Below, in pieces: positions 1 to 11,218 of a stretch of DNA of 22,567 bases. The DNA is from Promethearchaeota archaeon (GTDB lineage Archaea; Asgardarchaeota; Lokiarchaeia; Sigyniarchaeales; SOKP01): positions 1 through 22,567 of the forward strand of contig JAFGOA010000143.1 of the NCBI GenBank assembly GCA_016926735.1, read 5' to 3'. The translations under genes and the position numbers were made by a program. Position 1 is the first letter of the stretch. Every line of letters begins with the position of its first letter. The notes beneath the pieces were generated by a model that was not told the DNA's origin, made no database searches, and saw only the letters and a list, made by a program, of their open reading frames with translations.

Positions 1-169
1 AAGATTGAAATTAAGATGTGACCTTCTGACATTAAAGACATAGCAAAATGTTGGTAGCATAGAAAATAGCTTCAAAAAGAAGATTGATATCTACAGAGGT
101 ATTCTTCTGAAGCATTTGATTATTTTTTAGTAGTAATATAGAAAATAGCTTTAACAAGAAGATTTTAAT
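1..169 (+). CRISPR. Trailer end of a CRISPR array: partial repeat 1-11, spacer 12-53, repeat 54-90, spacer 91-132, degenerate repeat 133-169; probably continues left of the window
   Basis: Repeat GTAGCATAGAAAATAGCTTCAAAAAGAAGATTGATAT (54-90) recurs as GTAATATAGAAAATAGCTTTAACAAGAAGATTTTAAT (133-169, 30/37 identical) and as the 3' part AAGATTGAAAT (1-11). Period is exactly 79 bp, with two unrelated 42-bp spacers. A CTTC-AAAAA-GAAG hairpin followed by an 8-nt ATTGAAAT tail is typical of Cas6-processed repeats. No cas genes in the window. Confidence 0.82.
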
Positions 170-258
170 TTTATTTGGATATATCTTTGATTTTTCTTTA
201 AATATAAGGAATGAAATAAAATATGTATAGTTTTTATAACTATACATAAAAAGATAGC

Positions 259-426
259 ATGATAAAAACAGAAAAAATGACAATCGAAGGTCAAAAATTT
301 GATAAAAAAGCCTTAAAGCAATTATTAAAAATAAGAGAATCTTGGGAAAGTTTTTCAAAAGAGAGAGAAATTATTCCAAAACCAGAAAAAACAATGATAT
401 GTAAAAGATGTAAACAACCAAGATAA
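259..426 (+). CDS. 55-aa small ORF, putative RiPP precursor peptide with C-terminal CxxC (MIKTEKMTIEGQKFDKKALKQLLKIRESWESFSKEREIIPKPEKTMICKRCKQPR)
   Basis: Translated by hand (absent from the ORF track): ATG 259 to TAA 424-426. It ends 18 bp before the radical SAM start on the same strand. Helical-looking N-terminal part plus a CKRC tail. Confidence 0.65.
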   Translation: MIKTEKMTIEGQKFDKKALKQLLKIRESWESFSKEREIIPKPEKTMICKRCKQPR

Positions 427-430
427 TTAC

Positions 431-436
431 AAGGAG
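431..436 (+). promoter_or_regulatory. Shine-Dalgarno-like site for the radical SAM gene
   Basis: AAGGAG lies 8 nt before ATG 445, in the short gap after the 55-aa ORF. Confidence 0.55.
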
Positions 437-444
437 TAGAATAA

Positions 445-1773
445 ATGTTAGATATGATCTTTTATGATTTTAAGAGTCATAATTTTCAAAAACTACCTAA
501 AATTACTTTTAATACAGATAATAATCAGTTAAATCCTTATGTTTATTTTTTTTCGTATAATAATCCTCAAAATATAAGAGAAAAATATTATATTGCCTTT
601 TTTCCATATGAAGGATATGCTTGTTTATTTAATCAAGATCAGAAAAACAAGTTAAGTAGATTAGAATATAATTATAAAGATTTTTGCTACCCCTTTATTG
701 TAGATCAATCGAATTATATAAAAAAAAATGAAAAATCTCTAAAAGAAATAAATAGTTTAACTCTAATTATAGGAGATAATTGTAATTCAAATTGTATTTA
801 CTGCTATAATAAAAATCAAGAAACCAGATATAATAAATATAATTTTAAGAATTTCTTGAAAATAATTAAGAAAATATGTAAAAGATATAATATAAAAAAT
901 ATTTTTTTTTTTTCTAATGGTGAGCCCACATTATATTGGGAAAAATTCAGACAAATACTTGATGCTACAAGAAATTTTGATATAAATTATCAATTAACTA
1001 CCAATGGAGTTATTTCAAATCAAGAAGTATTGAATGAAATTTTAATATATAATTTTTCTATTTTAATAAGCATTGACGGAATGGAAAGAATTCATAATTT
1101 CCATAGGCCATTAAAAAAAAATGAAAATAGCTATAATCAAGTGAAGAAATTTATAGAATGGTGTGTAGATAATCTTGATAGGAACAATAAAATATTCTCT
1201 AGAACTACCATAACAAAATATAATGTAGATGATTTAATCCCTATAGCACATTATTTAAGCAACTTAGGTATAAAAAACCAGAGATTTGAAAAAGTCTGGA
1301 ATGTTCCTGAATTAGAACCCAATATTAAGAAATTTATGCATAATATAGTTAAGTTACAGATTTATACTGATTATAATAATATTAATCTAAGTGGATCCTA
1401 TTTTCCTTCTTCCAGTTCACAACATTATACAATTGGATGCAATTCCTTTTCAGGTGAAAATTTAGTTATTTCAGAGAGTGGAGATGTAAGTTTTTGTTTA
1501 TCTCCAAATAAATATACAATCTGGGGTGAAGTTAAAAATCAAAGGGGTCATATAAAATTACAATATTATTCAAAAAAAAAAGATATTGAATCTCAAAGAG
1601 AAATATTAACAAAAAAATGTTATTCATGTCCAATTCAATGTATTGGTCCTTGTATGAATCCTGAGGTAGAATCTAAAAAAGAAAATATGATTTGGTGCAA
1701 TGTAAAATTATGGATTTTAACACAATATTTAAAAAGAAAGTTTGATAAAAGACTAAGTGAATTAAAGAAATGA
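445..1773 (+). CDS. Radical SAM enzyme with SPASM domain (putative peptide maturase)
   Basis: CNSNCIYC (CxxxCxxC), NGEPTL, LTTNG and ISIDG motifs. C-terminal GC...GDVSFC plus CYSCPIQCIGPC...WC auxiliary-cluster cysteines. Confidence 0.93.
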   Translation: MLDMIFYDFKSHNFQKLPKITFNTDNNQLNPYVYFFSYNNPQNIREKYYIAFFPYEGYACLFNQDQKNKLSRLEYNYKDFCYPFIVDQSNYIKKNEKSLKEINSLTLIIGDNCNSNCIYCYNKNQETRYNKYNFKNFLKIIKKICKRYNIKNIFFFSNGEPTLYWEKFRQILDATRNFDINYQLTTNGVISNQEVLNEILIYNFSILISIDGMERIHNFHRPLKKNENSYNQVKKFIEWCVDNLDRNNKIFSRTTITKYNVDDLIPIAHYLSNLGIKNQRFEKVWNVPELEPNIKKFMHNIVKLQIYTDYNNINLSGSYFPSSSSQHYTIGCNSFSGENLVISESGDVSFCLSPNKYTIWGEVKNQRGHIKLQYYSKKKDIESQREILTKKCYSCPIQCIGPCMNPEVESKKENMIWCNVKLWILTQYLKRKFDKRLSELKK

Positions 1774-3827
1774 AATATAATTCGAAGATTGGATTAAAAG
1801 CCAGAAATTTAATAAAATTAAAATCAATTATTCCTATTCCAAATTTTATTACAATTGATCCAGAGTTATTTCTTCAAATTTATAATAATTTTGAGATTTC
1901 AAATGAATTAAGTCCTGATAGACCTGATGAAATTAAAATAGTTTCAGAAGAAGCTATAAAGAAAGTACATAACATCCCTTCTGATATATTAAACATAGTT
2001 ATAAAAGAAATTATCGACGCTCAACTTCAAGAACCGCTTATAATACGGTCATGTGCTTCAATAGAAGATCAAGATATTAAATATAATATTTTAGCAGGAA
2101 TTTTTGAGTCAATAGGTCCGATTAATGGGAGAAAGGAAATAGAACAGGGAATTTTAACTGTAATAAAATCTCTCTATTCTCCAAAAGCTATATTTCAAAT
2201 GTTAATAATGGGTATTTCGATTAAATCTGTATTAATGGGTATTATTATCCAAGAATATATTATAGGGGAATATTATGGTGTAGTATTTTCACATAATCCT
2301 CTAACTGGAGAAAAACAATTAATAATTGAATATTCTGAAAAACCTGAAGGAGTCACTTTAGGAAGTGGGGAATCAAAGATAATATATGGATCTGATGATT
2401 TTGATACCAATAATTATAATTTAAACATACAGATTATTTCACAAATTAAAAAATATATTAATATTTGTTTGAATTTACTGAATCATCCAATAGATATGGA
2501 GTTTGTTATTAAAAATAACGAATTATATATATTACAAGTAAGAGAATTGATATTACATAGTCAAAATAAAAAAGATGAAAAGATTGATAAGAGTTTTTTA
2601 AATATTGCTGAAGGAATTGTATCTTCTCCAGGATTTTGCATAGGTATTGGTAAGTATATAGATTCTTATTCCGAAGAAATTATTGAAAGAGCGAAAGATA
2701 ATGAAATTATACTCTCTGAAGTACTGGATTTGGGGATCCTCCCATGGATTGCAAATGCTAAAGGTTTTTGTACAATAGCTTCAGGATTTGCATCACATGC
2801 TTCTATTATTGCTCGTCAAATGAGAAAACCCATGTTAACAGCTTTAAATATATCCAGAGATCAATTAAGATTATTAGATGAGAAGAAATTTATTTTAAAT
2901 GCTACAGCATCTAAAGGATACATATTATCCACTAATGAAATTAAAGATTTAATTAATAAAGAGAGGGAATTAGATTTTTATTTTCTAAATTGGACATTAT
3001 CAGATCTATTTTCATATAGATTAGATAATATCAAATCGATTATTTTTAAAAAAAACCATTTGCTATTATTTGAAAAACCGGAAGAAGTGATAATTTTTTG
3101 TGATCTTGAAGAAAGTACTCATTTAATAGATCCTATTAAAATCTATTTCAAATCTCTTTATTCCAATAAAATAATTAAATTTGGATATATTGATGAGTAT
3201 TATGAAATATGGCCTGTAATAGTGATATATCGTTCAAATAAAGAAGATTTTAAATTGCTTGGAATTATTAAGGAACTTTTTGAAGAATTAAAATTTGATG
3301 AGATAAAAAGTAAAATTCAAAAATTAAAGAATGAGATTAATAAATTACATATAAATTTACAAAATAAAATTACATTGAGTTCATTTGACCAAATGAATAA
3401 TCTACAATTCTTATATGATATAATCCAACAAATTAGACTTAAATCTACAACGCTTACCGCAATAAATCGAATATTATTTGACTTTGGAGATCGTTCACTT
3501 AGTGAAATATTAAAACATAAATTTGAAGATCCTGCAATTATTTTATCTCAATTAGAACAAGGAATACCACTTAAAAGTATGGGAATTCAAGAACCAAGTT
3601 CTTTTTTAGTCTTAGAATTCTATTTAAAACTTACAAAATTAAAAAATAGCATGGAAATACGATTTGATGAAGATAAATTAAATCAGTATAATATTATATA
3701 TGATAAAATACAAAAACTCTCAAAATTATATAGAAAGGATTTTGGTGCATGGGATATTATTCTCTTTAAAATATCGAAAAGTCTTAATATCAAAAATTAC
3801 ATATTTGACTTCGAATACAATGAATGA
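1770..3827 (+). CDS. PEP-utilising/dikinase-like enzyme: PPDK N-terminal ATP-grasp domain, phospho-His swivel domain, unknown C-terminal domain
   Basis: IGLKARNL, IIRSCASIED, AGIFES, QEYI..GVVFS, PIDMEF and LYILQVR (PPDK_N). GFASHASIIARQMRKP is the His-phosphocarrier motif. ATGA overlap with the radical SAM stop codon. Confidence 0.88.
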   Translation: MKYNSKIGLKARNLIKLKSIIPIPNFITIDPELFLQIYNNFEISNELSPDRPDEIKIVSEEAIKKVHNIPSDILNIVIKEIIDAQLQEPLIIRSCASIEDQDIKYNILAGIFESIGPINGRKEIEQGILTVIKSLYSPKAIFQMLIMGISIKSVLMGIIIQEYIIGEYYGVVFSHNPLTGEKQLIIEYSEKPEGVTLGSGESKIIYGSDDFDTNNYNLNIQIISQIKKYINICLNLLNHPIDMEFVIKNNELYILQVRELILHSQNKKDEKIDKSFLNIAEGIVSSPGFCIGIGKYIDSYSEEIIERAKDNEIILSEVLDLGILPWIANAKGFCTIASGFASHASIIARQMRKPMLTALNISRDQLRLLDEKKFILNATASKGYILSTNEIKDLINKERELDFYFLNWTLSDLFSYRLDNIKSIIFKKNHLLLFEKPEEVIIFCDLEESTHLIDPIKIYFKSLYSNKIIKFGYIDEYYEIWPVIVIYRSNKEDFKLLGIIKELFEELKFDEIKSKIQKLKNEINKLHINLQNKITLSSFDQMNNLQFLYDIIQQIRLKSTTLTAINRILFDFGDRSLSEILKHKFEDPAIILSQLEQGIPLKSMGIQEPSSFLVLEFYLKLTKLKNSMEIRFDEDKLNQYNIIYDKIQKLSKLYRKDFGAWDIILFKISKSLNIKNYIFDFEYNE

Positions 3828-3863
3828 TTGTTGAAATAAGTATATTTATATTTACTTTATATA

Positions 3864-3900
3864 TTATTATAGAAAATAGCTTCAAAAAGAAGATTGAGGT
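3864..3900 (+). repeat. Solitary CRISPR repeat copy downstream of the rSAM/PEP-enzyme operon
   Basis: 3869-3897 ATAGAAAATAGCTTCAAAAAGAAGATTGA is a 29-bp exact match to 59-87 in the same orientation. No neighbouring repeat at +/-79 bp. Confidence 0.9.
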
Positions 3901-4052
3901 TGTTTTTTACAGGAGATAGGAAATATACCAAATGAGGATATTTTAAAAATTCATAAATAGTCTTTACTATCCATTTAAAATACTTATATATAAACGATTA
4001 TTAGGATAAATACATATGATAAATATAAGTAATATAGTTGATTGTGAAGATT

Positions 4053-4166
4053 ATGAAAGTCTTGAATAAAGATGATATTTTCAAACTTTTCAACCAACAT
4101 AGAAATCAATTGAAGAATAAGGGAACATATTTTTATTATTTTGGTAATAAAATTGAGACATTATAA
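4053..4166 (+). pseudogene. Possible truncated N-terminus of an MNT-type nucleotidyltransferase (MKVLNKDDIFKLFNQHRNQLKNKG...)
   Basis: 37-aa ORF whose first ~24 residues resemble the amphipathic N-terminal helix of minimal nucleotidyltransferases. It has no GS..DxD motif and runs into the 3' end of the opposite-strand gene. Confidence 0.35.
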
Positions 4167-4726
4167 GTACCAAGATTTTGTCCTACTATTGTCTTTATCC
4201 AATTATTATTATTAATTATTTTATTAAAATAATTATAATCTGATGGTGATAATGATTTTTTGAGCAAATCTAAGTCTTCTATGATTGGAAATTCGGGGAA
4301 ATCTGTTAATTTTGCATTAGGTGATATTCCTTTAAAATTTAATACCAATTCCAGTACTTTAAGATAATCATTATTATATTTTTTTAAAGACTTAAAATAA
4401 CCTTGAACTGTAGATGGCTTAACATTAAATCTTTTAGCTATATCAGAAATATTAACTCTAAGTGCTTTTAATTGAAGTGAAATTTCAATCTTTCGTGCCC
4501 TTGAATTAATATTACTTTTGTTTTTAATTTTATTTTCTATCGGAATTAATTCAATCAATTTATGATTATATAACCAATTTAATAATTTAGCATTATTACT
4601 TTTTTGTTTGATTAAAGTATTGGATATTTTAATTGGAATATTATCTTTGATTGCTTTATCAATTATTTTTAAAAAGTCTATAAATGGTTTTTTAAGTGAT
4701 TTTATTTCAATGAAATTTGAATTCAT
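4136..4726 (-). CDS. Hypothetical protein with helix-turn-helix motif
   Basis: 196-aa ORF starting 3 bp after the ATPase stop. NISDIAKRFNVKPSTVQGYFKSL is HTH-like. Confidence 0.65.
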   Translation of the reverse strand: MNSNFIEIKSLKKPFIDFLKIIDKAIKDNIPIKISNTLIKQKSNNAKLLNWLYNHKLIELIPIENKIKNKSNINSRARKIEISLQLKALRVNISDIAKRFNVKPSTVQGYFKSLKKYNNDYLKVLELVLNFKGISPNAKLTDFPEFPIIEDLDLLKKSLSPSDYNYFNKIINNNNWIKTIVGQNLGTYNVSILLPK

Positions 4727-4729
4727 TTT

Positions 4730-6760
4730 TTATTCCGGTTCCTCTTTTATTATATTTATAAGTTCCTTAAAAACTTGGATCATTAAACTCTCTGGATTAT
4801 TTTTTATATCTGATTTATCAAAATAATCCCAATTAAATTCTACTCGCTCATTTTTTTCTTTAATTATATTATGTTGTTTAAGATATTCAAGTGCCTCATC
4901 AAAAGAATTTTTTAGTAAGGGTTGTTTTATTAGATTTTTAATTGCATTGATTGTTCGGTATGAATAAACTTTATTTTTATTTCCCAAACAAATTATTATT
5001 TCTATAGCTGTTCTTTTCGAAGTTTCATTAATACTTTTTAATTCTGTTAATAAATTGAGATATGATTCATTAGGAAAAGAGATAGTTGGTTTAATTGGTT
5101 CTTCAGAAGATTTTATTATAGTTTGAGTTTCTTCTTCAGTTGGAATTTCTTCTTCAGTAGGAAATAAATTAGTTAGTTTTCCATGAAAATCTTTATTCAT
5201 TAATCTCAACAATTTATCAAAATCTTCAAATTTTTCATTAAGTTGAGAATAATTAATCTTTCCAAGGCCAACAAGACAGTTTAATAGCGTTTGATCGTTG
5301 ATAATTATTGGAATAATTAATTGTATATCTATGTCAGGATCGATATATCCAAAATTTTTCCATTTATGAATACATTCACTAACATATTCCTCAGTTAAAT
5401 CTTTACAAAAGAGGAAAAAAATCACTTTTGAATTTTTATTTTTTACACAATTAATTACTTGTTTTGATTTACCCAAATCAAATGATTCTGGATTGCTAAA
5501 TGACTTAATTTCAGCATATAACTCTATTTTACCTCCTTTAACGGCCATAAATTTACCATCTATTAACTTACCTTCTCCAACATCAACATGTTTTTTAATA
5601 AAATGAAAGTTCAGAAAATTTAAGTAACTAGCAAAAATCGGTTCAATTATCTTTCCAATAGTTAAATAATGAGATCTATGCTTTTCTGCTGTATTATATT
5701 CATTTTGACCATGTTTTATTTCATCTGTGAGATTAATAAATGATCTTATAGAGGATATTATTGCTTGATTTGCTTTTCTCCTTGATAATTTTTTATCTAT
5801 TTTATTTTTCAAGGTTAGTAAAAATGTATTGAAAATTTCATCATCAGCTTTTTTATAGGCTTTTTCCAATATAATAAGCCATTTTAGCATAGCTTCTTCC
5901 GCTTCATCATCTTGATATACTCCTTGTTCTCGTATATGTACATAAGGTCCTGAAGAAGAAACTTTCATCATTTCTGAGGATATTCTCTGTATTCCTGGAG
6001 CTCTATCACTCTGATCGCTCCTAATCGAATTATAGACTCTTGGAGTTAGACAAAATATTTGGTATAATCGAAAATTTGAAAGTCTATCTAATAACTTTCG
6101 AAAAAAATACTGTCGTTTTAAAAAATTTTTACTCCATATGGATTCGTCCTCTAATTTTGATAACCAATCATCGCATTCATCATACATAAATAAAAAAGCG
6201 ATTTTATATTTTGAAACAAATTCTATTATATCAAATACTATTTTTAATAATCTTTCTTCATCAATTAAAGGTAAATGAGAAATCTCAGTTCGAATATTTG
6301 AAATTTTCATATCTATTCCAGGAGAACTTTCAATAATTCTCTCAAGTTCATTTAGATATTTATGAATTTTATCTAAATGTTCGGGAGCATTTTTATTTTT
6401 TCTAAATTCTACAAGTAAATTTAAAAAATTCTCAAATGCATTTTGGTCATCTTTAAAATCCTTAGTTCCTTTACATAATTCTAGCTGTTTTGTTAATATT
6501 TGTGCCGCTTCTTTCTCAATTTGTTCACCTAAAAAAGTTGCGGTTAGATCTGTGGAACCATTAAAAACTACCGGGATAATTACAGAATAAGGGGGAATAC
6601 TACGATTTCTATTATTATTTATGATACTCTTTATTAATTCTATATATTGAGTCTTTGAACCTCCGTAATCTGATTCATAATATTGGGCGCCAGTTTCATT
6701 TTTATCATTAATTGCGATTCTATTAATATTACTTTCAAATTCTCTAACACCTTTTTTCAT
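4730..6760 (-). CDS. P-loop ATPase-like protein fused to a PD-(D/E)xK nuclease-like domain and probable C-terminal winged helix; frame is open upstream to 6940
   Basis: Divergent Walker A SDYGGSKT and Walker B FLFMYDE. GKIIEP...LIDG...YAEIKSF fits the E...D...ExK restriction-endonuclease pattern. The C-terminal FDEALEYLKQHNIIKE is wHTH-like. Confidence 0.7.
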   Translation of the reverse strand: MKKGVREFESNINRIAINDKNETGAQYYESDYGGSKTQYIELIKSIINNNRNRSIPPYSVIIPVVFNGSTDLTATFLGEQIEKEAAQILTKQLELCKGTKDFKDDQNAFENFLNLLVEFRKNKNAPEHLDKIHKYLNELERIIESSPGIDMKISNIRTEISHLPLIDEERLLKIVFDIIEFVSKYKIAFLFMYDECDDWLSKLEDESIWSKNFLKRQYFFRKLLDRLSNFRLYQIFCLTPRVYNSIRSDQSDRAPGIQRISSEMMKVSSSGPYVHIREQGVYQDDEAEEAMLKWLIILEKAYKKADDEIFNTFLLTLKNKIDKKLSRRKANQAIISSIRSFINLTDEIKHGQNEYNTAEKHRSHYLTIGKIIEPIFASYLNFLNFHFIKKHVDVGEGKLIDGKFMAVKGGKIELYAEIKSFSNPESFDLGKSKQVINCVKNKNSKVIFFLFCKDLTEEYVSECIHKWKNFGYIDPDIDIQLIIPIIINDQTLLNCLVGLGKINYSQLNEKFEDFDKLLRLMNKDFHGKLTNLFPTEEEIPTEEETQTIIKSSEEPIKPTISFPNESYLNLLTELKSINETSKRTAIEIIICLGNKNKVYSYRTINAIKNLIKQPLLKNSFDEALEYLKQHNIIKEKNERVEFNWDYFDKSDIKNNPESLMIQVFKELINIIKEEPE

Positions 6761-7218: not shown

Positions 7219-8727
7219 ATGAATGATAGAATCAATATTACGTTATTGGGTGGTGTAAATGAGGTTGGAGGGAATACTTTTTTATTAGAAGATTTTGGTT
7301 ATGATATAAAAATTTTAATTGATTTTGGCGTTAAAATTGATAGATACTTTAGATATTATCCAAGAAAAAAAGCACCATCTACAATTAATGAATTAATAAT
7401 GAATAATCTAATTCCAAATGATGATTTACTTCCAATTGATGATCTCTATACTCATTCTTGGTCGAATATAAAAATAAAAAATACTTCTATAAAAATCAAA
7501 GAACAGATTTCATTAGATCAATTATATCCTTCGAATTTAGATGGAATTCTAATATCCCATGCGCATAAAGATCATTATTTTGGAATTTCATTCATCAATC
7601 GTTCAATTCCAATCTATACGGGAAAGGTAACGAAAAAGATAATTAAAGCATTTTATAAATCGGAAATTCATAAATTAGATAATAATTTCAAGGGATTAAA
7701 ATGGAGAACGTTTAAAACTGGTGATATAATAAATATTAAAGATTTAAAAATAATACCTTTTCATGTTGATCATTCTGTTCCAGGAGCTTATGGATTTATT
7801 ATATATTCTTCTGTAGGAATTATTGTCTATACAGGTGATTTTCGTATGCATGGTCCATTATCTAATATGACAAGAGAATTTTTAGAACAGATTAAGACGA
7901 ATAATATATTCCTCCGAAGTAATACTGCTGATGATAAGCAAAAAGTTTTAATTTCTAAGGGTGTAAAGGTTTTATTATGTGAAGGAACTCGAATTCATAA
8001 GGGGATTGTTGAATCTGAAGAAAGCGTAGAAAATAATTTGGAAAAGTTGTTTCAAAATAATCCTTTTAATTTTATATTGGTAAAATACGATAGAACAGAT
8101 TGGGATCGATTCCGAACATTTTCCCAAATAGCAAAAAACCATAATTGGAAATATATTATCACTGAAAAGGATGCATATTTTTATTATTTATTAAATAAGT
8201 ACGGTTTGCAAAATACTATGAAGGATCCTAATATTATTAAAGACGATCATATTTATATTGTCATCAACGGAGATGTAAAATACATTTGGCAAGAAAAAAT
8301 CCGTCAAATTATCTATAAGAATCAAAAAGGAGCTAGATTTTTAAAATATTCGGATTTATATGATATTGATGGTAATTTCTTTTTTTATTTAACAAATATC
8401 AATAGAAAGCTTATCAAAAATCTTAATTTTAAAAAAACGGGATTGTTTATATCTTCAAGTATTGATCCGTATAGTGAAGAATTCTATGATAATACAAATA
8501 CAATTTATGCGAAACTTCAAGAATTTGGAATTCCTTGCTATCGTATTCATGCGTCTGGACATGTTCTAATTCATGATCTTATTAACTTTGTTAAATCCAT
8601 TAATCCTATGCATTTAATTCCTGTCCACACAGAATATTCTGAATTTATTAAACTTTTATTTTCAAAATATGATATTGATACAATCATTGGAGAGAAAAAT
8701 AAAATTATATCTTTTAATGCTGATTAA
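7219..8727 (+). CDS. Metallo-beta-lactamase/beta-CASP fold hydrolase, RNase J-like
   Basis: LLGGVNEVGGN, ILIDFG, SHAHKDH (HxHxDH), VDHSVPGA, YTGDFR, CEGT, HASGH and PVHTE motifs. Confidence 0.9.
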   Translation: MNDRINITLLGGVNEVGGNTFLLEDFGYDIKILIDFGVKIDRYFRYYPRKKAPSTINELIMNNLIPNDDLLPIDDLYTHSWSNIKIKNTSIKIKEQISLDQLYPSNLDGILISHAHKDHYFGISFINRSIPIYTGKVTKKIIKAFYKSEIHKLDNNFKGLKWRTFKTGDIINIKDLKIIPFHVDHSVPGAYGFIIYSSVGIIVYTGDFRMHGPLSNMTREFLEQIKTNNIFLRSNTADDKQKVLISKGVKVLLCEGTRIHKGIVESEESVENNLEKLFQNNPFNFILVKYDRTDWDRFRTFSQIAKNHNWKYIITEKDAYFYYLLNKYGLQNTMKDPNIIKDDHIYIVINGDVKYIWQEKIRQIIYKNQKGARFLKYSDLYDIDGNFFFYLTNINRKLIKNLNFKKTGLFISSSIDPYSEEFYDNTNTIYAKLQEFGIPCYRIHASGHVLIHDLINFVKSINPMHLIPVHTEYSEFIKLLFSKYDIDTIIGEKNKIISFNAD

Positions 8728-9499: not shown

Positions 9500-9961
9500 A
9501 TGTGTGACTTTAAATATATAATATATATGGATAAAGAAAGAATTAAAAGATATAAAGAAAAACAGGAATATTTTAATAAAGTGTTTGAGAATCTGATTGA
9601 TTGGATAAAAGACATTACAGATGATGATTTTGTATATAGACTAAATCTTCATGATCAATTTTCAATTTACCATGCATATCAAATTTTAATAGAGATTTCT
9701 GCAGATTTATCTGCTATGATATTGAAAGATATAAAAATACTCCCTAAAGATGATTATGTTAATTTTGATGAATTAGCAAAATCAAATATCCTAAATAAAG
9801 ATGTAGCTTATCACTTAAAGCAAGCAAATGGATTACGAAACCATATTGTTCATGGTTATAATGGTTTAAATGAATCAATTGCATTTAACGAGATAAAGAA
9901 GTATATTCCATATTTTAAAGAATTTAGAGAAGAGATTAATAAATGGTTGAAAAAAAACTAA
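9500..9961 (+). CDS. HEPN (DUF86/HepT-like) RNase toxin; the true start may be ATG 9527
   Basis: LRNHIVHGY matches the RX4H(x)Y HEPN motif. Overlaps the downstream MNT gene. Confidence 0.88.
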   Translation: MCDFKYIIYMDKERIKRYKEKQEYFNKVFENLIDWIKDITDDDFVYRLNLHDQFSIYHAYQILIEISADLSAMILKDIKILPKDDYVNFDELAKSNILNKDVAYHLKQANGLRNHIVHGYNGLNESIAFNEIKKYIPYFKEFREEINKWLKKN

Positions 9962-10338
9962 TAGAACAAATTAGAAATGATTTTACTTTAATTATAGAAA
10001 AAAAAGACATTATCGGTATTTTAATATATGGCTCATATTCAAAGAATCAACAAATAAATCGGAGTGATATTGATATCTGTATTGTAGCTCCAAATGAAGA
10101 TTCTATTGAATTATTAGATTTAATAGCCGGTAATGTAGATATAATGAAGAAAAAATATGATGTTAGAATTTTTTCTGAACTACCATTATTTATGAAAATT
10201 CAAATTATAAATGATGGGATATTGATTTATACTCTTGATAAATTTGATTTATATGAATTTTTTTATAAATATCGAAAATTATGGAATGATCAGCAAAATA
10301 GACAAGAACTATCCAAAGAAGAATTACTGACTCTTTAA
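9943..10338 (+). CDS. Minimal nucleotidyltransferase (MntA-like antitoxin)
   Basis: ILIYGSYS...SDIDICIV is the GS-x10-DxD Pol-beta motif. Paired with HEPN. Confidence 0.9.
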   Translation: MVEKKLIEQIRNDFTLIIEKKDIIGILIYGSYSKNQQINRSDIDICIVAPNEDSIELLDLIAGNVDIMKKKYDVRIFSELPLFMKIQIINDGILIYTLDKFDLYEFFYKYRKLWNDQQNRQELSKEELLTL

Positions 10339-10345
10339 TTAATTA

Positions 10346-10382
10346 AACTTCTTAAAAATAACTTCAAAAAGAAGATTGATAA
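10346..10382 (+). repeat. Second solitary CRISPR repeat copy, just after the MNT stop codon
   Basis: 10355-10381 AAAATAACTTCAAAAAGAAGATTGATA matches 63-89 at 26/27 positions. The 5' part of the repeat is diverged; the hairpin is intact. Confidence 0.82.
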
Positions 10383-10707
10383 ATTACATTTAGTTCATGA
10401 AATTTGGATTTTGCTAAACTTCCTTTAATGAATGATAACTGTCCTATCATTGAATTATAAGATTATTAACATATAAAATATCGATTTTAGTAGAAAAATT
10501 AAATTCTCAAATAATATTCAAAAGAAAGAATATCAATTGATTCTAATTTTAAATATTTATAAATTGTATATTTTATCAGAGAATTTTCGAATAGAAAGAA
10601 AAAACAATTCAATTTTACTCAGAAAATAATCAGTAGTAACCAATAGTTGCAAAAGTAATTTTAGAGTAAATAGATATATTATTTTGATTTTCTTTATTAT
10701 TATTATA

Positions 10708-10845
10708 AAAAGTATTAATCCTCAACATTTAATCCCTATTCATACTGAACATTCTGAATTCTTTAAAGTGTTGTTTTCAAAATATAATATCAATGTAATT
10801 ATATCTAAAAAAAATGAGAAACTAAGTTTCAATTCATCCAATTAA
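10708..10845 (+). pseudogene. Orphan diverged copy of the 3' end of the MBL/RNase J-like gene
   Basis: Translates to KSINPQHLIPIHTEHSEFFKVLFSKYNINVIISKKNEKLSFNSSN*, versus KSINPMHLIPVHTEYSEFIKLLFSKYDIDTIIGEKNKIISFNAD* at 8593-8727 (29/44 identical, ungapped). No start codon at the homology boundary. Confidence 0.88.
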
Positions 10846-11218
10846 TGATACTGGAATTAATCCAGAAAATAATATTTAATTTGCTAAGAAAAATGTTTAA
10901 AATTAGCTATTTTATCCAAATAATGTAGTATTTTCAAAATACTTTAATATAATTCATCTATTTCAGAAAAAAGAAGAAAAAAGAGCCGAAATTCGAAGAA
11001 AAATAAAAGGGAAAGAAAAATTAAACTGTTTTTAGTTTAATAGAGGGCGAAATCCAATGTTAAACCTTCGAATTTGTGATCTCCTTCCATTAAATATAAT
11101 CTAAATTAACATATAAATATGCATGTATTTTAGATCAGAAATAGAAATATTTTTAATTTAAAAAAATCTGTTTTTTTTTATATTTTTGTTCAAATACAAA
11201 AAATATCGAAATATTTAA

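Follow-up and report, generated by a model that had tools for sequence, protein, structure and literature searches.

Radical S-adenosylmethionine (SAM) enzymes with a SPASM domain usually carry two auxiliary 4Fe-4S clusters and the Cys pattern CX9-15GX4C ... CX2CX5CX3C ... C. Maturases of anaerobic sulfatases and of tungsten-cofactor oxidoreductases are each encoded beside their client protein. Enzymes outside central metabolism that combine the N-terminal ATP-grasp domain of pyruvate phosphate dikinase (PPDK_N) with a His-swivel domain act on rifampin, prodiginine precursors or hydroxyphenylethanones, and in rifampin phosphotransferase (RPH) the His domain is located at the C-terminus. The abstracts of two papers likewise describe PPDK_N/His-swivel enzymes acting on specialised substrates (PMC4844700, PMC13534948). 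Among peptides that are made by the ribosome and modified after translation (RiPPs), the ranthipeptides have been reported in archaea only recently, as the available excerpt of PMC13635244 indicates, and the corresponding excerpt of a survey of Asgard defence systems mentions no dikinase (PMC11291487). A literature search for radical SAM, SPASM or RiPP together with phosphoenolpyruvate (PEP)-utilizing or PPDK-type enzymes returned no such pairing among the titles and abstracts listed. A paper on pyrroloquinoline quinone synthesis in Acetobacter, which names a radical SAM enzyme, a pyruvate phosphate dikinase and a precursor peptide, is unrelated by its title and abstract. Here we describe a locus on contig JAFGOA010000143.1, analysed over a stretch of 22,567 nucleotides (the window), in which three genes lie in a row on one strand: a small open reading frame (ORF), a gene for a radical SAM enzyme (rSAM) and a gene for a dikinase-like enzyme.

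Positions given below are those of the window and refer to the + strand unless stated otherwise; G000 denotes the host genome and G001 that of a sister species of the same genus. As the explanation that we favour, we hold tentatively that the three genes form a self-contained peptide-modification cassette in which the product of the small ORF is the substrate. The assignment of this cassette to the RiPP systems is plausible but unproven. A sequence-only reading of the same DNA had pointed to a 55-aa ORF ending in MICKRCKQPR, a Shine-Dalgarno (SD) site, an rSAM gene and a PPDK_N gene translationally coupled to it, and all of these features were recovered in place (Table 1). That reading had also seen no protease or exporter adjacent to the genes, in agreement with our finding that none is encoded between the flanking CRISPR repeats.

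The small ORF and its probable promoter block

The 55-aa product of the small ORF has a pI of 9.9 and is composed of a variable N-terminus (residues 1-22), a conserved middle region IRESWE ... PKPEK.M (residues ~23-46) and the tail ICKRCKQPR with two Cys. Scored against the codon usage of the long genes of G000, the ORF reached 0.453. The average is 0.345 (sd 0.132) for windows of 55 codons in the true frame of genes and -0.035 for spurious ORFs of 45-70 codons; of 900 such spurious ORFs, 0.44% scored as high as the small ORF. When the 277-nt region was shuffled 5000 times, an ORF of at least 55 codons starting with ATG arose by chance in 0.16% of cases on the + strand and in 2.5% when either strand was allowed. 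A predicted protein from another assembly, P0158, is 62% identical to the product and ends in MICKRCKKPR; its N-terminal third has drifted, and hardly any change is seen from IRESWES through the tail. The gene-like codon usage, together with the existence of a 55-aa homologue in which the tail is kept, shows that the small ORF is a genuine coding gene. Conservation of the ORF, on which the earlier reading had staked its proposal of a precursor, is borne out by P0158, in which both length and tail are preserved. As looked for in RiPP systems, a genuine small gene, here the candidate for the precursor, lies next to a maturase-like gene.

The ~65 nt in front of the ATG form a conserved block which, in an alignment of four copies (those of the window, of contigs C173 and C38 of G000, and of G001), is better conserved than the small ORF itself. 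The block contains the TATA-like sequence TTTAAATATAA at positions 197-207. Between this box and the ATG lies a perfect palindrome with an 8-bp stem (225-245; GTATAGTT N5 AACTATAC), part of which is retained in the other copies. It might serve as an operator, possibly one used by the protein with weak helix-turn-helix (HTH) matches encoded at 4136-4726. RNA from 225 to 450 folds at z = -2.67, mainly owing to the hairpin formed by this palindrome, and a search of positions 1-4300 with Rfam gave nothing relevant (one match resembling a small nucleolar RNA, E 0.87). No comparable conserved block was seen before the rSAM gene, and hence the sole conserved promoter-like block is the one preceding the small ORF, which probably functions as a promoter. 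Because this block is found only before the small ORF, while the rSAM gene has an AAGGAG, we infer that a single transcript would start before the small ORF and span the cassette.

The arrangement of the genes is tight. A gap of 18 nt separates the small ORF from the rSAM gene, and the stop codon of the latter and the start codon of the dikinase-like gene share the ATGA at 1770-1773. The sequence AAGGAG was found at -16 to -4 of 21 out of 1993 long ORFs of G000, compared with 2 out of 1993 at a control distance, and is a genuine though uncommon start signal in this genome. Since SD-like sites mark only a minority of the starts in G000, the AAGGAG following the small ORF would suit translation of the rSAM gene as a downstream cistron. 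No rRNA was found in the G000 assembly with an archaeal 16S model.

Nine of the 135 genomes of the taxonomic family gave a match to the small ORF at E <= 0.01, and among these matches only the three copies of G000 exceeded 20.1 bits (110, 99.9 and 76.4 bits). A search of 5.8 billion proteins with a profile of the peptide family returned only the window's own product, P0158 and the paralogue on C38, and a degenerate pattern of the tail had 0 matches in JGI metagenome contigs. The look-alikes of the peptide in the ESM Atlas were fragments of ribosomal S14/S29e proteins (best 0.86, below the 0.9 line), which serve as a lead only.

Promoter and small ORF are thus present three times in G000, once in the window and once each on C173 and C38. 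The C173 copy (2073-2285) shows 91.6% DNA identity to positions 168-382 of the window, is located directly after a degenerate CRISPR repeat and stops at codon 41 beside a fragment with a TNB domain of the Cas12f/TnpB type (62.6 bits); we read it as a truncated duplicate of the 5' end of the cassette. The region containing repeat, promoter and ORF (L021 2045-2582) lies upstream of a gene for a CitMHS transporter. The C38 paralogue (L099 6328-7966; C38:9000-18237) is full length and 37% identical. It has the same promoter block and middle motif and a different tail with one Cys, and is located 85 nt upstream of a gene for a 458-aa membrane-anchored right-handed beta-helix protein.

These copies bring in another explanation, according to which the two enzymes work together in an accessory pathway whose substrate is not a peptide (for example a small molecule, a nucleotide or a lipid), perhaps linked to defence, and the small ORF is an unrelated basic protein or a regulatory upstream ORF carried on a portable promoter module. 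We regard this as somewhat unlikely. The threefold presence of promoter and small ORF, once before the beta-helix gene and once cut short beside the TnpB-type fragment, is what a portable module would give. The strict preservation of the tail in a homologue whose N-terminus drifts is not readily accommodated by such a role, and neither is the presence of an SD-like site right after the small ORF, at a gene for which no separate conserved promoter was seen.

Table 1. Features of the three-gene cassette and of the CRISPR repeats on either side of it.
Feature	Positions	Strand	Basis or remark
CRISPR array, trailer end	1..169	+	Repeat family D1; same repeat on C173 and C225
Conserved block, probable promoter	191..258	+	Kept in 4/4 aligned copies: window, C173, C38, G001
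Small ORF, candidate precursor peptide	259..426	+	ORF list, coding statistics, homologue P0158
Shine-Dalgarno-like AAGGAG	431..436	+	8 nt before rSAM ATG at 445
Radical SAM enzyme, 442 aa	445..1773	+	Pfam, NCBIfam and PDB matches, Cys pattern
PPDK_N (ATP-grasp) + PEP-utilizers His-swivel enzyme, 685 aa	1770..3827	+	Pfam, alignment
Solitary CRISPR repeat	3864..3900	+	37 nt past operon stop codon

The two enzymes and their candidate substrate

The rSAM protein matched Pfam family Radical_SAM (PF04055) with 65.1 bits (cut-off 29.5), which places it in this superfamily. Its CX3CX2C motif reads CNSNCIYC (residues 113-120), and residues 332-418 form a SPASM-type region with seven Cys (C332-x13-G-x4-C351, C392-x2-C395-x3-C399-x3-C403, C418). 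An extension of ~105 residues lies ahead of the cluster motif, as is the case in three distant relatives aligned with it, the peptide maturases P0004-P0006. The best alignment to an NCBIfam model was that to PapB (2.2e-25, residues 102-405, 89.6 bits versus a cut-off of 340). The SCIFF maturase (59.4 bits versus 425) and HxsB (63.4 versus 370) were also aligned, and further alignments to peptide maturases were those to CefB, the Nif11 maturase, YhhB and CcpM, the last one from residue 31 on. The best relatives in the PDB were 8vpo (1.7e-10, residues 99-431), SkfB, the radical SAM domain of ChlB and 5wgg; a paper whose abstract deals with a cyclopropylglycine synthase of the RS-SPASM type acting on RiPPs cites 8vpo (PMC10878394). 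The ESM Atlas returned generic radical SAM clusters for this protein. The AlphaFold model of the rSAM, built on a 5-row alignment, has a mean pLDDT of 54, with residues 1-47 and 80-99 below 50, and is therefore too poor to judge the presence of a RiPP recognition element (RRE) or of a SPASM fold.

Two matches pointed to prokaryotic viperins, one to the NCBIfam model viperin_w_prok (49.4 bits versus 180, residues 109-263 only) and one to pVip in PADLOC (7.8e-16, residues 109-301). This identity was rejected, as the score lies below the cut-off and only the generic radical SAM core was aligned. The pVip match to the core would fit a pathway on a non-peptide substrate, as would the fact that the characterised PPDK_N/His-swivel enzymes outside central metabolism use small molecules, with which the abstracts on them agree. 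However, these viperin matches cover only the generic core and are far under the cut-off, whereas the alignments to peptide maturases run through the SPASM region, and PADLOC gave no match for the dikinase-like protein.

The dikinase-like protein matched Pfam families PPDK_N (PF01326; 83.6 bits, cut-off 27) and PEP-utilizers (PF00391; 32.5 bits, cut-off 23.1) and so belongs to the superfamily. When the protein is aligned with 9 distant relatives (620-720 aa), residues K10, R93, E99/D100, Q161, E244, Q256, R258 and H343 prove invariant, His343 being part of the motif ASHASIIAR. Because the ATP-grasp residues and His343 are invariant, the enzyme looks catalytically competent. The NCBIfam models for PEP synthase (75.5 bits versus 598), PigC (63.7 versus 1300) and RedH were all far from their cut-offs, and RIF_Ptrans_rph scored 39.3 bits versus 999 over residues 45-185 only. 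With all scores this far under the cut-offs, PEP synthase, PPDK, RPH and PigC were rejected as identities of the enzyme.

The order of domains is ATP-grasp, His swivel and a C-terminal domain of ~290 residues (about 386/400-685). Neither a Pfam family above cut-off nor a PEP/pyruvate-binding TIM barrel was detected in residues 386-685. AlphaFold models this domain as a helical bundle (pLDDT 74). Foldseek searches with the model gave no match at E <= 0.001 (best 0.087), and VIA-align gave only generic helical matches with Z < 8 (best 7.9, with a root-mean-square deviation of 2.9 over 79 residues). As modelled, the C-terminal domain has no clear structural match, from which novelty of the fold does not follow. 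The nearest solved chains (PEP synthases, 5fbs, 5hv1) were all aligned only across the two N-terminal domains.

These results bear on how the two enzymes had been described in the sequence-only reading. Its view of a SPASM-type rSAM agrees with the seven-Cys pattern and with the nearest families and solved relatives, which are peptide maturases, but found no echo in the SPASM model of Pfam. Its view of a PPDK-like enzyme outside central metabolism holds, in that the catalytic residues are kept and the protein belongs to none of the PEP synthase, PPDK or RPH families.

Binding of the peptide by the rSAM was addressed by complex prediction. Of 157 solved complexes, 116 reach the mark used for such predictions, as do 2 of 215 mismatched pairs; scores of 0.60 or less that nevertheless passed were limited to 18 of those 157 and to both of the passing mismatches. 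The rSAM with the peptide scored 0.48 (runs of 0.69, 0.00 and 0.48), and the best of three controls scored 0.02. The runs agreed in at least 17% of contacts, and the pLDDT of the partner was at least 35. The prediction thus lends weak support to binding of the peptide by the rSAM.

If the three genes do form a peptide-modification cassette, a single promoter upstream of the small ORF would drive all three, and the 55-aa product would be the substrate, with the middle region IRESWE...PKPEK.M as recognition or leader part and the basic tail ICKRCKQPR with its two Cys as core. The SPASM-type rSAM would bind the peptide, and a 5'-deoxyadenosyl radical would install a crosslink in the tail. This crosslink would most likely be a thioether between a Cys sulfur and a carbon, because that is what the nearest families (PapB, SCIFF/CteB, SkfB) make. 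The dikinase-type enzyme would move a phosphate from ATP onto His343, and its helical C-terminal domain would hand it to the peptide or the crosslinked product, resulting in phosphorylation or in phosphoryl activation for a further reaction. What we infer in this scheme is which molecule is the substrate, what kind of crosslink is made, where the phosphoryl group goes and that the genes are co-transcribed.

A different role for the rSAM would be maturation of a protein, possibly of the dikinase-like enzyme itself, by analogy with the anaerobic sulfatase maturase (anSME) or the tungsten-cofactor oxidoreductase maturase. The latter (W_rSAM_matur) was the second-best match in NCBIfam (4.1e-19) and the former the sixth-best (4.5e-15, residues 109-414). 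In addition, the ATGA overlap would suit a fixed stoichiometry, and the dikinase-like protein contains five Cys, one of which, C334, is located nine residues before His343. We nevertheless judge this role to be quite improbable. Enzymes of the anSME type are not known to have a long N-terminal extension, whereas ~105 extra residues are present here, as in peptide maturases; the alignment to the sulfatase maturase begins at position 7 of the model and at residue 109 of the rSAM. An rSAM neighbour is absent from all 66 distant PPDK_N loci analysed, which indicates that the family does not generally need such a maturase, and the conserved Cys-tailed ORF would be left unexplained.

CRISPR surroundings, distribution and decay

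Like a spacer of unusual size, the cassette is situated between the degenerate terminal repeat of an array and a repeat that stands alone, a setting that the sequence-only reading had missed. The array end upstream opens with the final 11 nt of a repeat (1-11), continues with a near-perfect copy of 37 nt (54-90) and closes with the degenerate terminal repeat (133-169), the spacers being 42 nt long. The core of the solitary repeat downstream (3869-3895) equals the array repeat, and both of its ends are degenerate. The 37-nt array repeat recurs at the start of C173 (1-735) in an array of 10 copies, with spacings of 75-79 nt, and is found again at the end of C225 (19429-19455), a contig carrying a cas operon of type I-B with a Cas8b-like gene split in two, two genes for Cas7, and those for Cas5, Cas3, Cas4, Cas2 and Cas1. 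Contigs of G000 break inside CRISPR arrays that share this one repeat. In the cas operon of C225 (L022, C225:4000-19464), a gene for a 389-aa metallo-beta-lactamase/RMMBL (beta-CASP-like) protein (9863-11032, - strand), a relative of the RNase J-like gene of the window, lies between cas4 and the Cas8b-like gene. C173 carries a PIN/MazE toxin-antitoxin pair.

At the level of the class, 8 of 161 genomes matched the C-terminal domain of the dikinase-like enzyme at E <= 0.01, with 613.9 bits for G000, 378.8 for G001 and at most 22 for the rest; at the level of the phylum, 2 of 400 genomes, again G000 and G001, matched at E <= 1e-4. The G001 locus (L111, C81:4000-21103) has suffered a deletion from just after the ATG of the small ORF to the last 62 codons of the rSAM gene, and its dikinase gene is broken by several stop codons. 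As the deletion starts just after the ATG of the small ORF, this ORF was part of the ancestral module. Three degenerate CRISPR repeats follow the decayed operon, in the same relative place as the solitary repeat of the window. Upstream of it are three genes of the RAMP superfamily (type III-like; 47-5268 of L111), with two membrane proteins between. No homologues of these RAMP genes were found in G000 at E <= 1e-5, which is why the idea of a constant association with a type III CRISPR system was dropped.

The proposal of a pathway on a non-peptide substrate, perhaps in defence, draws on these surroundings as well: CRISPR repeats flank the cassette, a HepT/MNT pair and the PIN/MazE pair are near, and the decayed G001 copy is located between RAMP genes and a mini-array of three repeats. 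It is countered in part by the lack of counterparts of those RAMP genes in G000, which speaks against a fixed type III link.

In large protein libraries the rSAM had only two close relatives, both fragments (75-76% identity; the one at 75% comes from a related lineage), and the dikinase had one fragment at 56% besides the piece from G001 itself. Short low-depth contigs from three sediment and salt-marsh runs of two other studies cover parts of the operon at 80-99% likeness. One metagenome contig joins position 1340 to 4134 and skips the rest of the operon, in another, 55 other letters stand between 3842 and 4134, and a third fits from 378 on and is preceded by unlike sequence. One RNA run yielded no contig over the stretch, which speaks neither for nor against expression. 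Position 4134, just past the end of the HTH gene, looks like the boundary of an island, since in two other metagenomes the operon region is joined to this point. Pattern matches to the rSAM in JGI metagenome contigs (576) and to the dikinase in contigs of species-representative genomes (29) gave none that was confirmed, nor was any confirmed for either enzyme in IMG/VR viral contigs, and no intact relative of the pair was found in any collection searched. The presence in 2 of 400 genomes, the wreck in G001, the fragmentary relatives and the junctions in contigs together strongly indicate that the cassette is a rare, mobile and often decaying accessory element.

The same data raise the question whether the cassette of the window is itself a decaying remnant without function, its open frames merely reflecting recent acquisition. 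In favour of this are the almost complete deletion of the rSAM gene and the several stops in the dikinase gene of G001, the truncation of the second copy of the 5' end in G000, the contig in which the operon is skipped from 1340 to 4134 and the shortness of the known fragments of relatives. We hold it to be very improbable, given that frames of 55, 442 and 685 codons are all open at a G+C content of 26%, at which stop codons come up often, that the catalytic motifs are all intact and that the codon usage of the small ORF is gene-like.

Beyond the solitary repeat, two convergent genes, overlapping to adjacent, occupy positions 4136-6760 on the - strand, opposite to the cassette. One encodes the 196-aa protein with weak HTH matches (4136-4726, - strand), and the other a 676-aa protein (- strand) for which no family above cut-off was found in Pfam, NCBIfam or PADLOC. 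The RNase J-like gene (502 aa) is located at 7219-8727, and overlapping genes for a HepT-like RNase and an MNT nucleotidyltransferase, a pair of the toxin-antitoxin type, at 9500-10338. G000 comprises 3.88 Mb in 238 contigs with 26% G+C. It contains ribosomal protein S4e, which among 14 control genomes matched only the four archaea, four actin-family genes (C4:45356-46468, C125, C100 and C202; best 443 bits) and several gelsolin-domain genes (including C16:1906-2412), gelsolin having matched none of the 14 control genomes. Owing to its S4e, actin-family and gelsolin-domain genes, the host looks like an Asgard-type archaeon, a point that the sequence-only reading did not have.

Several of the findings weigh against the view that the three genes form a peptide-modification cassette. 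On the side of the peptide, Thr45 is replaced by Lys in the homologue, leaving the tail without a conserved Ser, Thr or Tyr. The location of the C38 paralogue before a gene that does not encode a maturase weakens the case for a dedicated precursor, and because that beta-helix gene is unrelated, promoter and small ORF could be a module independent of the enzymes. On the side of the rSAM, the Pfam SPASM model (PF13186) gave no match even at E up to 10, and no RRE or PqqD-like domain was found by Pfam in residues 1-105, likewise at E up to 10. The enzyme resembles curated NCBIfam families and is a member of none, all maturase scores being far under the cut-offs, and the two maturases of proteins discussed above score among them. 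The predicted complex is a weak pass in which one of three runs gave 0.00. With respect to the locus, no protease, exporter or immunity gene adjoins the cassette, and the only ABC transporter within the window is ~16 kb away. A function in defence would fit the setting among CRISPR repeats and toxin-antitoxin genes just as well. The absence of rSAM neighbours at the 66 distant PPDK_N loci was found both by tblastn and by a hidden Markov model search over 2779 ORFs; as a control, the rSAM model recovered four other ORFs of G000 besides the rSAM of the window. Finally, only one intact copy of the cassette was found.

Comparison with known systems

The pairing of an rSAM with a PPDK-type enzyme, and also the host, are unusual, on thin evidence from a single intact locus. 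A bolder form of the proposal, that the dikinase-like enzyme is the first of the PPDK-type superfamily to act on a peptide and that the cassette, bounded by CRISPR repeats, represents a new class of archaeal RiPPs, appears unlikely to us. Under that proposal the repeats may move the cassette by recombination, and its product may be used against viruses or competitors. If the reading of a peptide-modification cassette is right, PPDK-type dikinases would be a new enzyme class in the tailoring chemistry of RiPPs, and, for want of a conserved hydroxyl residue in the tail, the phosphoryl group may go to an acceptor other than Ser, Thr or Tyr. The locus would also provide a candidate modified peptide from an Asgard-type archaeon. 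The position next to CRISPR repeats, kept in two species, raises the question whether such repeats serve as recombination sites for accessory cassettes. One intact copy is known, and the organism is uncultured.

The maturases of anaerobic sulfatases and of tungsten-cofactor oxidoreductases appear to have the SPASM architecture in common with the rSAM, at comparable E-values. In contrast to these two, the enzyme described here has a long N-terminal extension and follows a small Cys-tailed ORF, and the scores are 68.9 bits versus 380 and 55.6 versus 349.

Over its ATP-grasp and His domains, the dikinase-like enzyme has its best PDB and NCBIfam matches in PEP synthase and PPDK, whose catalytic His motif it retains. 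The enzyme differs from them in that no TIM barrel was detected, in its length of 685 aa compared with ~800-880 aa for the solved chains, and in being encoded by an accessory gene present in 2 of 400 genomes of the phylum. With RPH and with PigC, RedH and HapC it shares an ATP-grasp PPDK_N domain, a phospho-His swivel and a third, substrate-specific domain in place of the PEP/pyruvate barrel. Here, the ATP-grasp domain is followed by the His domain and then by the helical C-terminal domain, an order unlike that in RPH. A further difference from RPH and the prodiginine ligases is the pairing with an rSAM, together with a C-terminal domain that has no clear structural match.

Taken as a whole, the cassette is most like an RS-SPASM RiPP cluster. 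In common with PapB, the SCIFF maturase/CteB, SkfB and the family of 8vpo, it has the CX3CX2C motif, a seven-Cys region like that for auxiliary clusters, an N-terminal extension of ~100 residues and a small Cys-containing ORF directly upstream. The spacing of the middle Cys differs, being CX2CX3CX3C here and CX2CX5CX3C as a rule in SPASM maturases. The rSAM also differs from these maturases in scores far below the cut-offs and in the lack of a detected RRE, and in that the partner of the rSAM is a PPDK-type dikinase.

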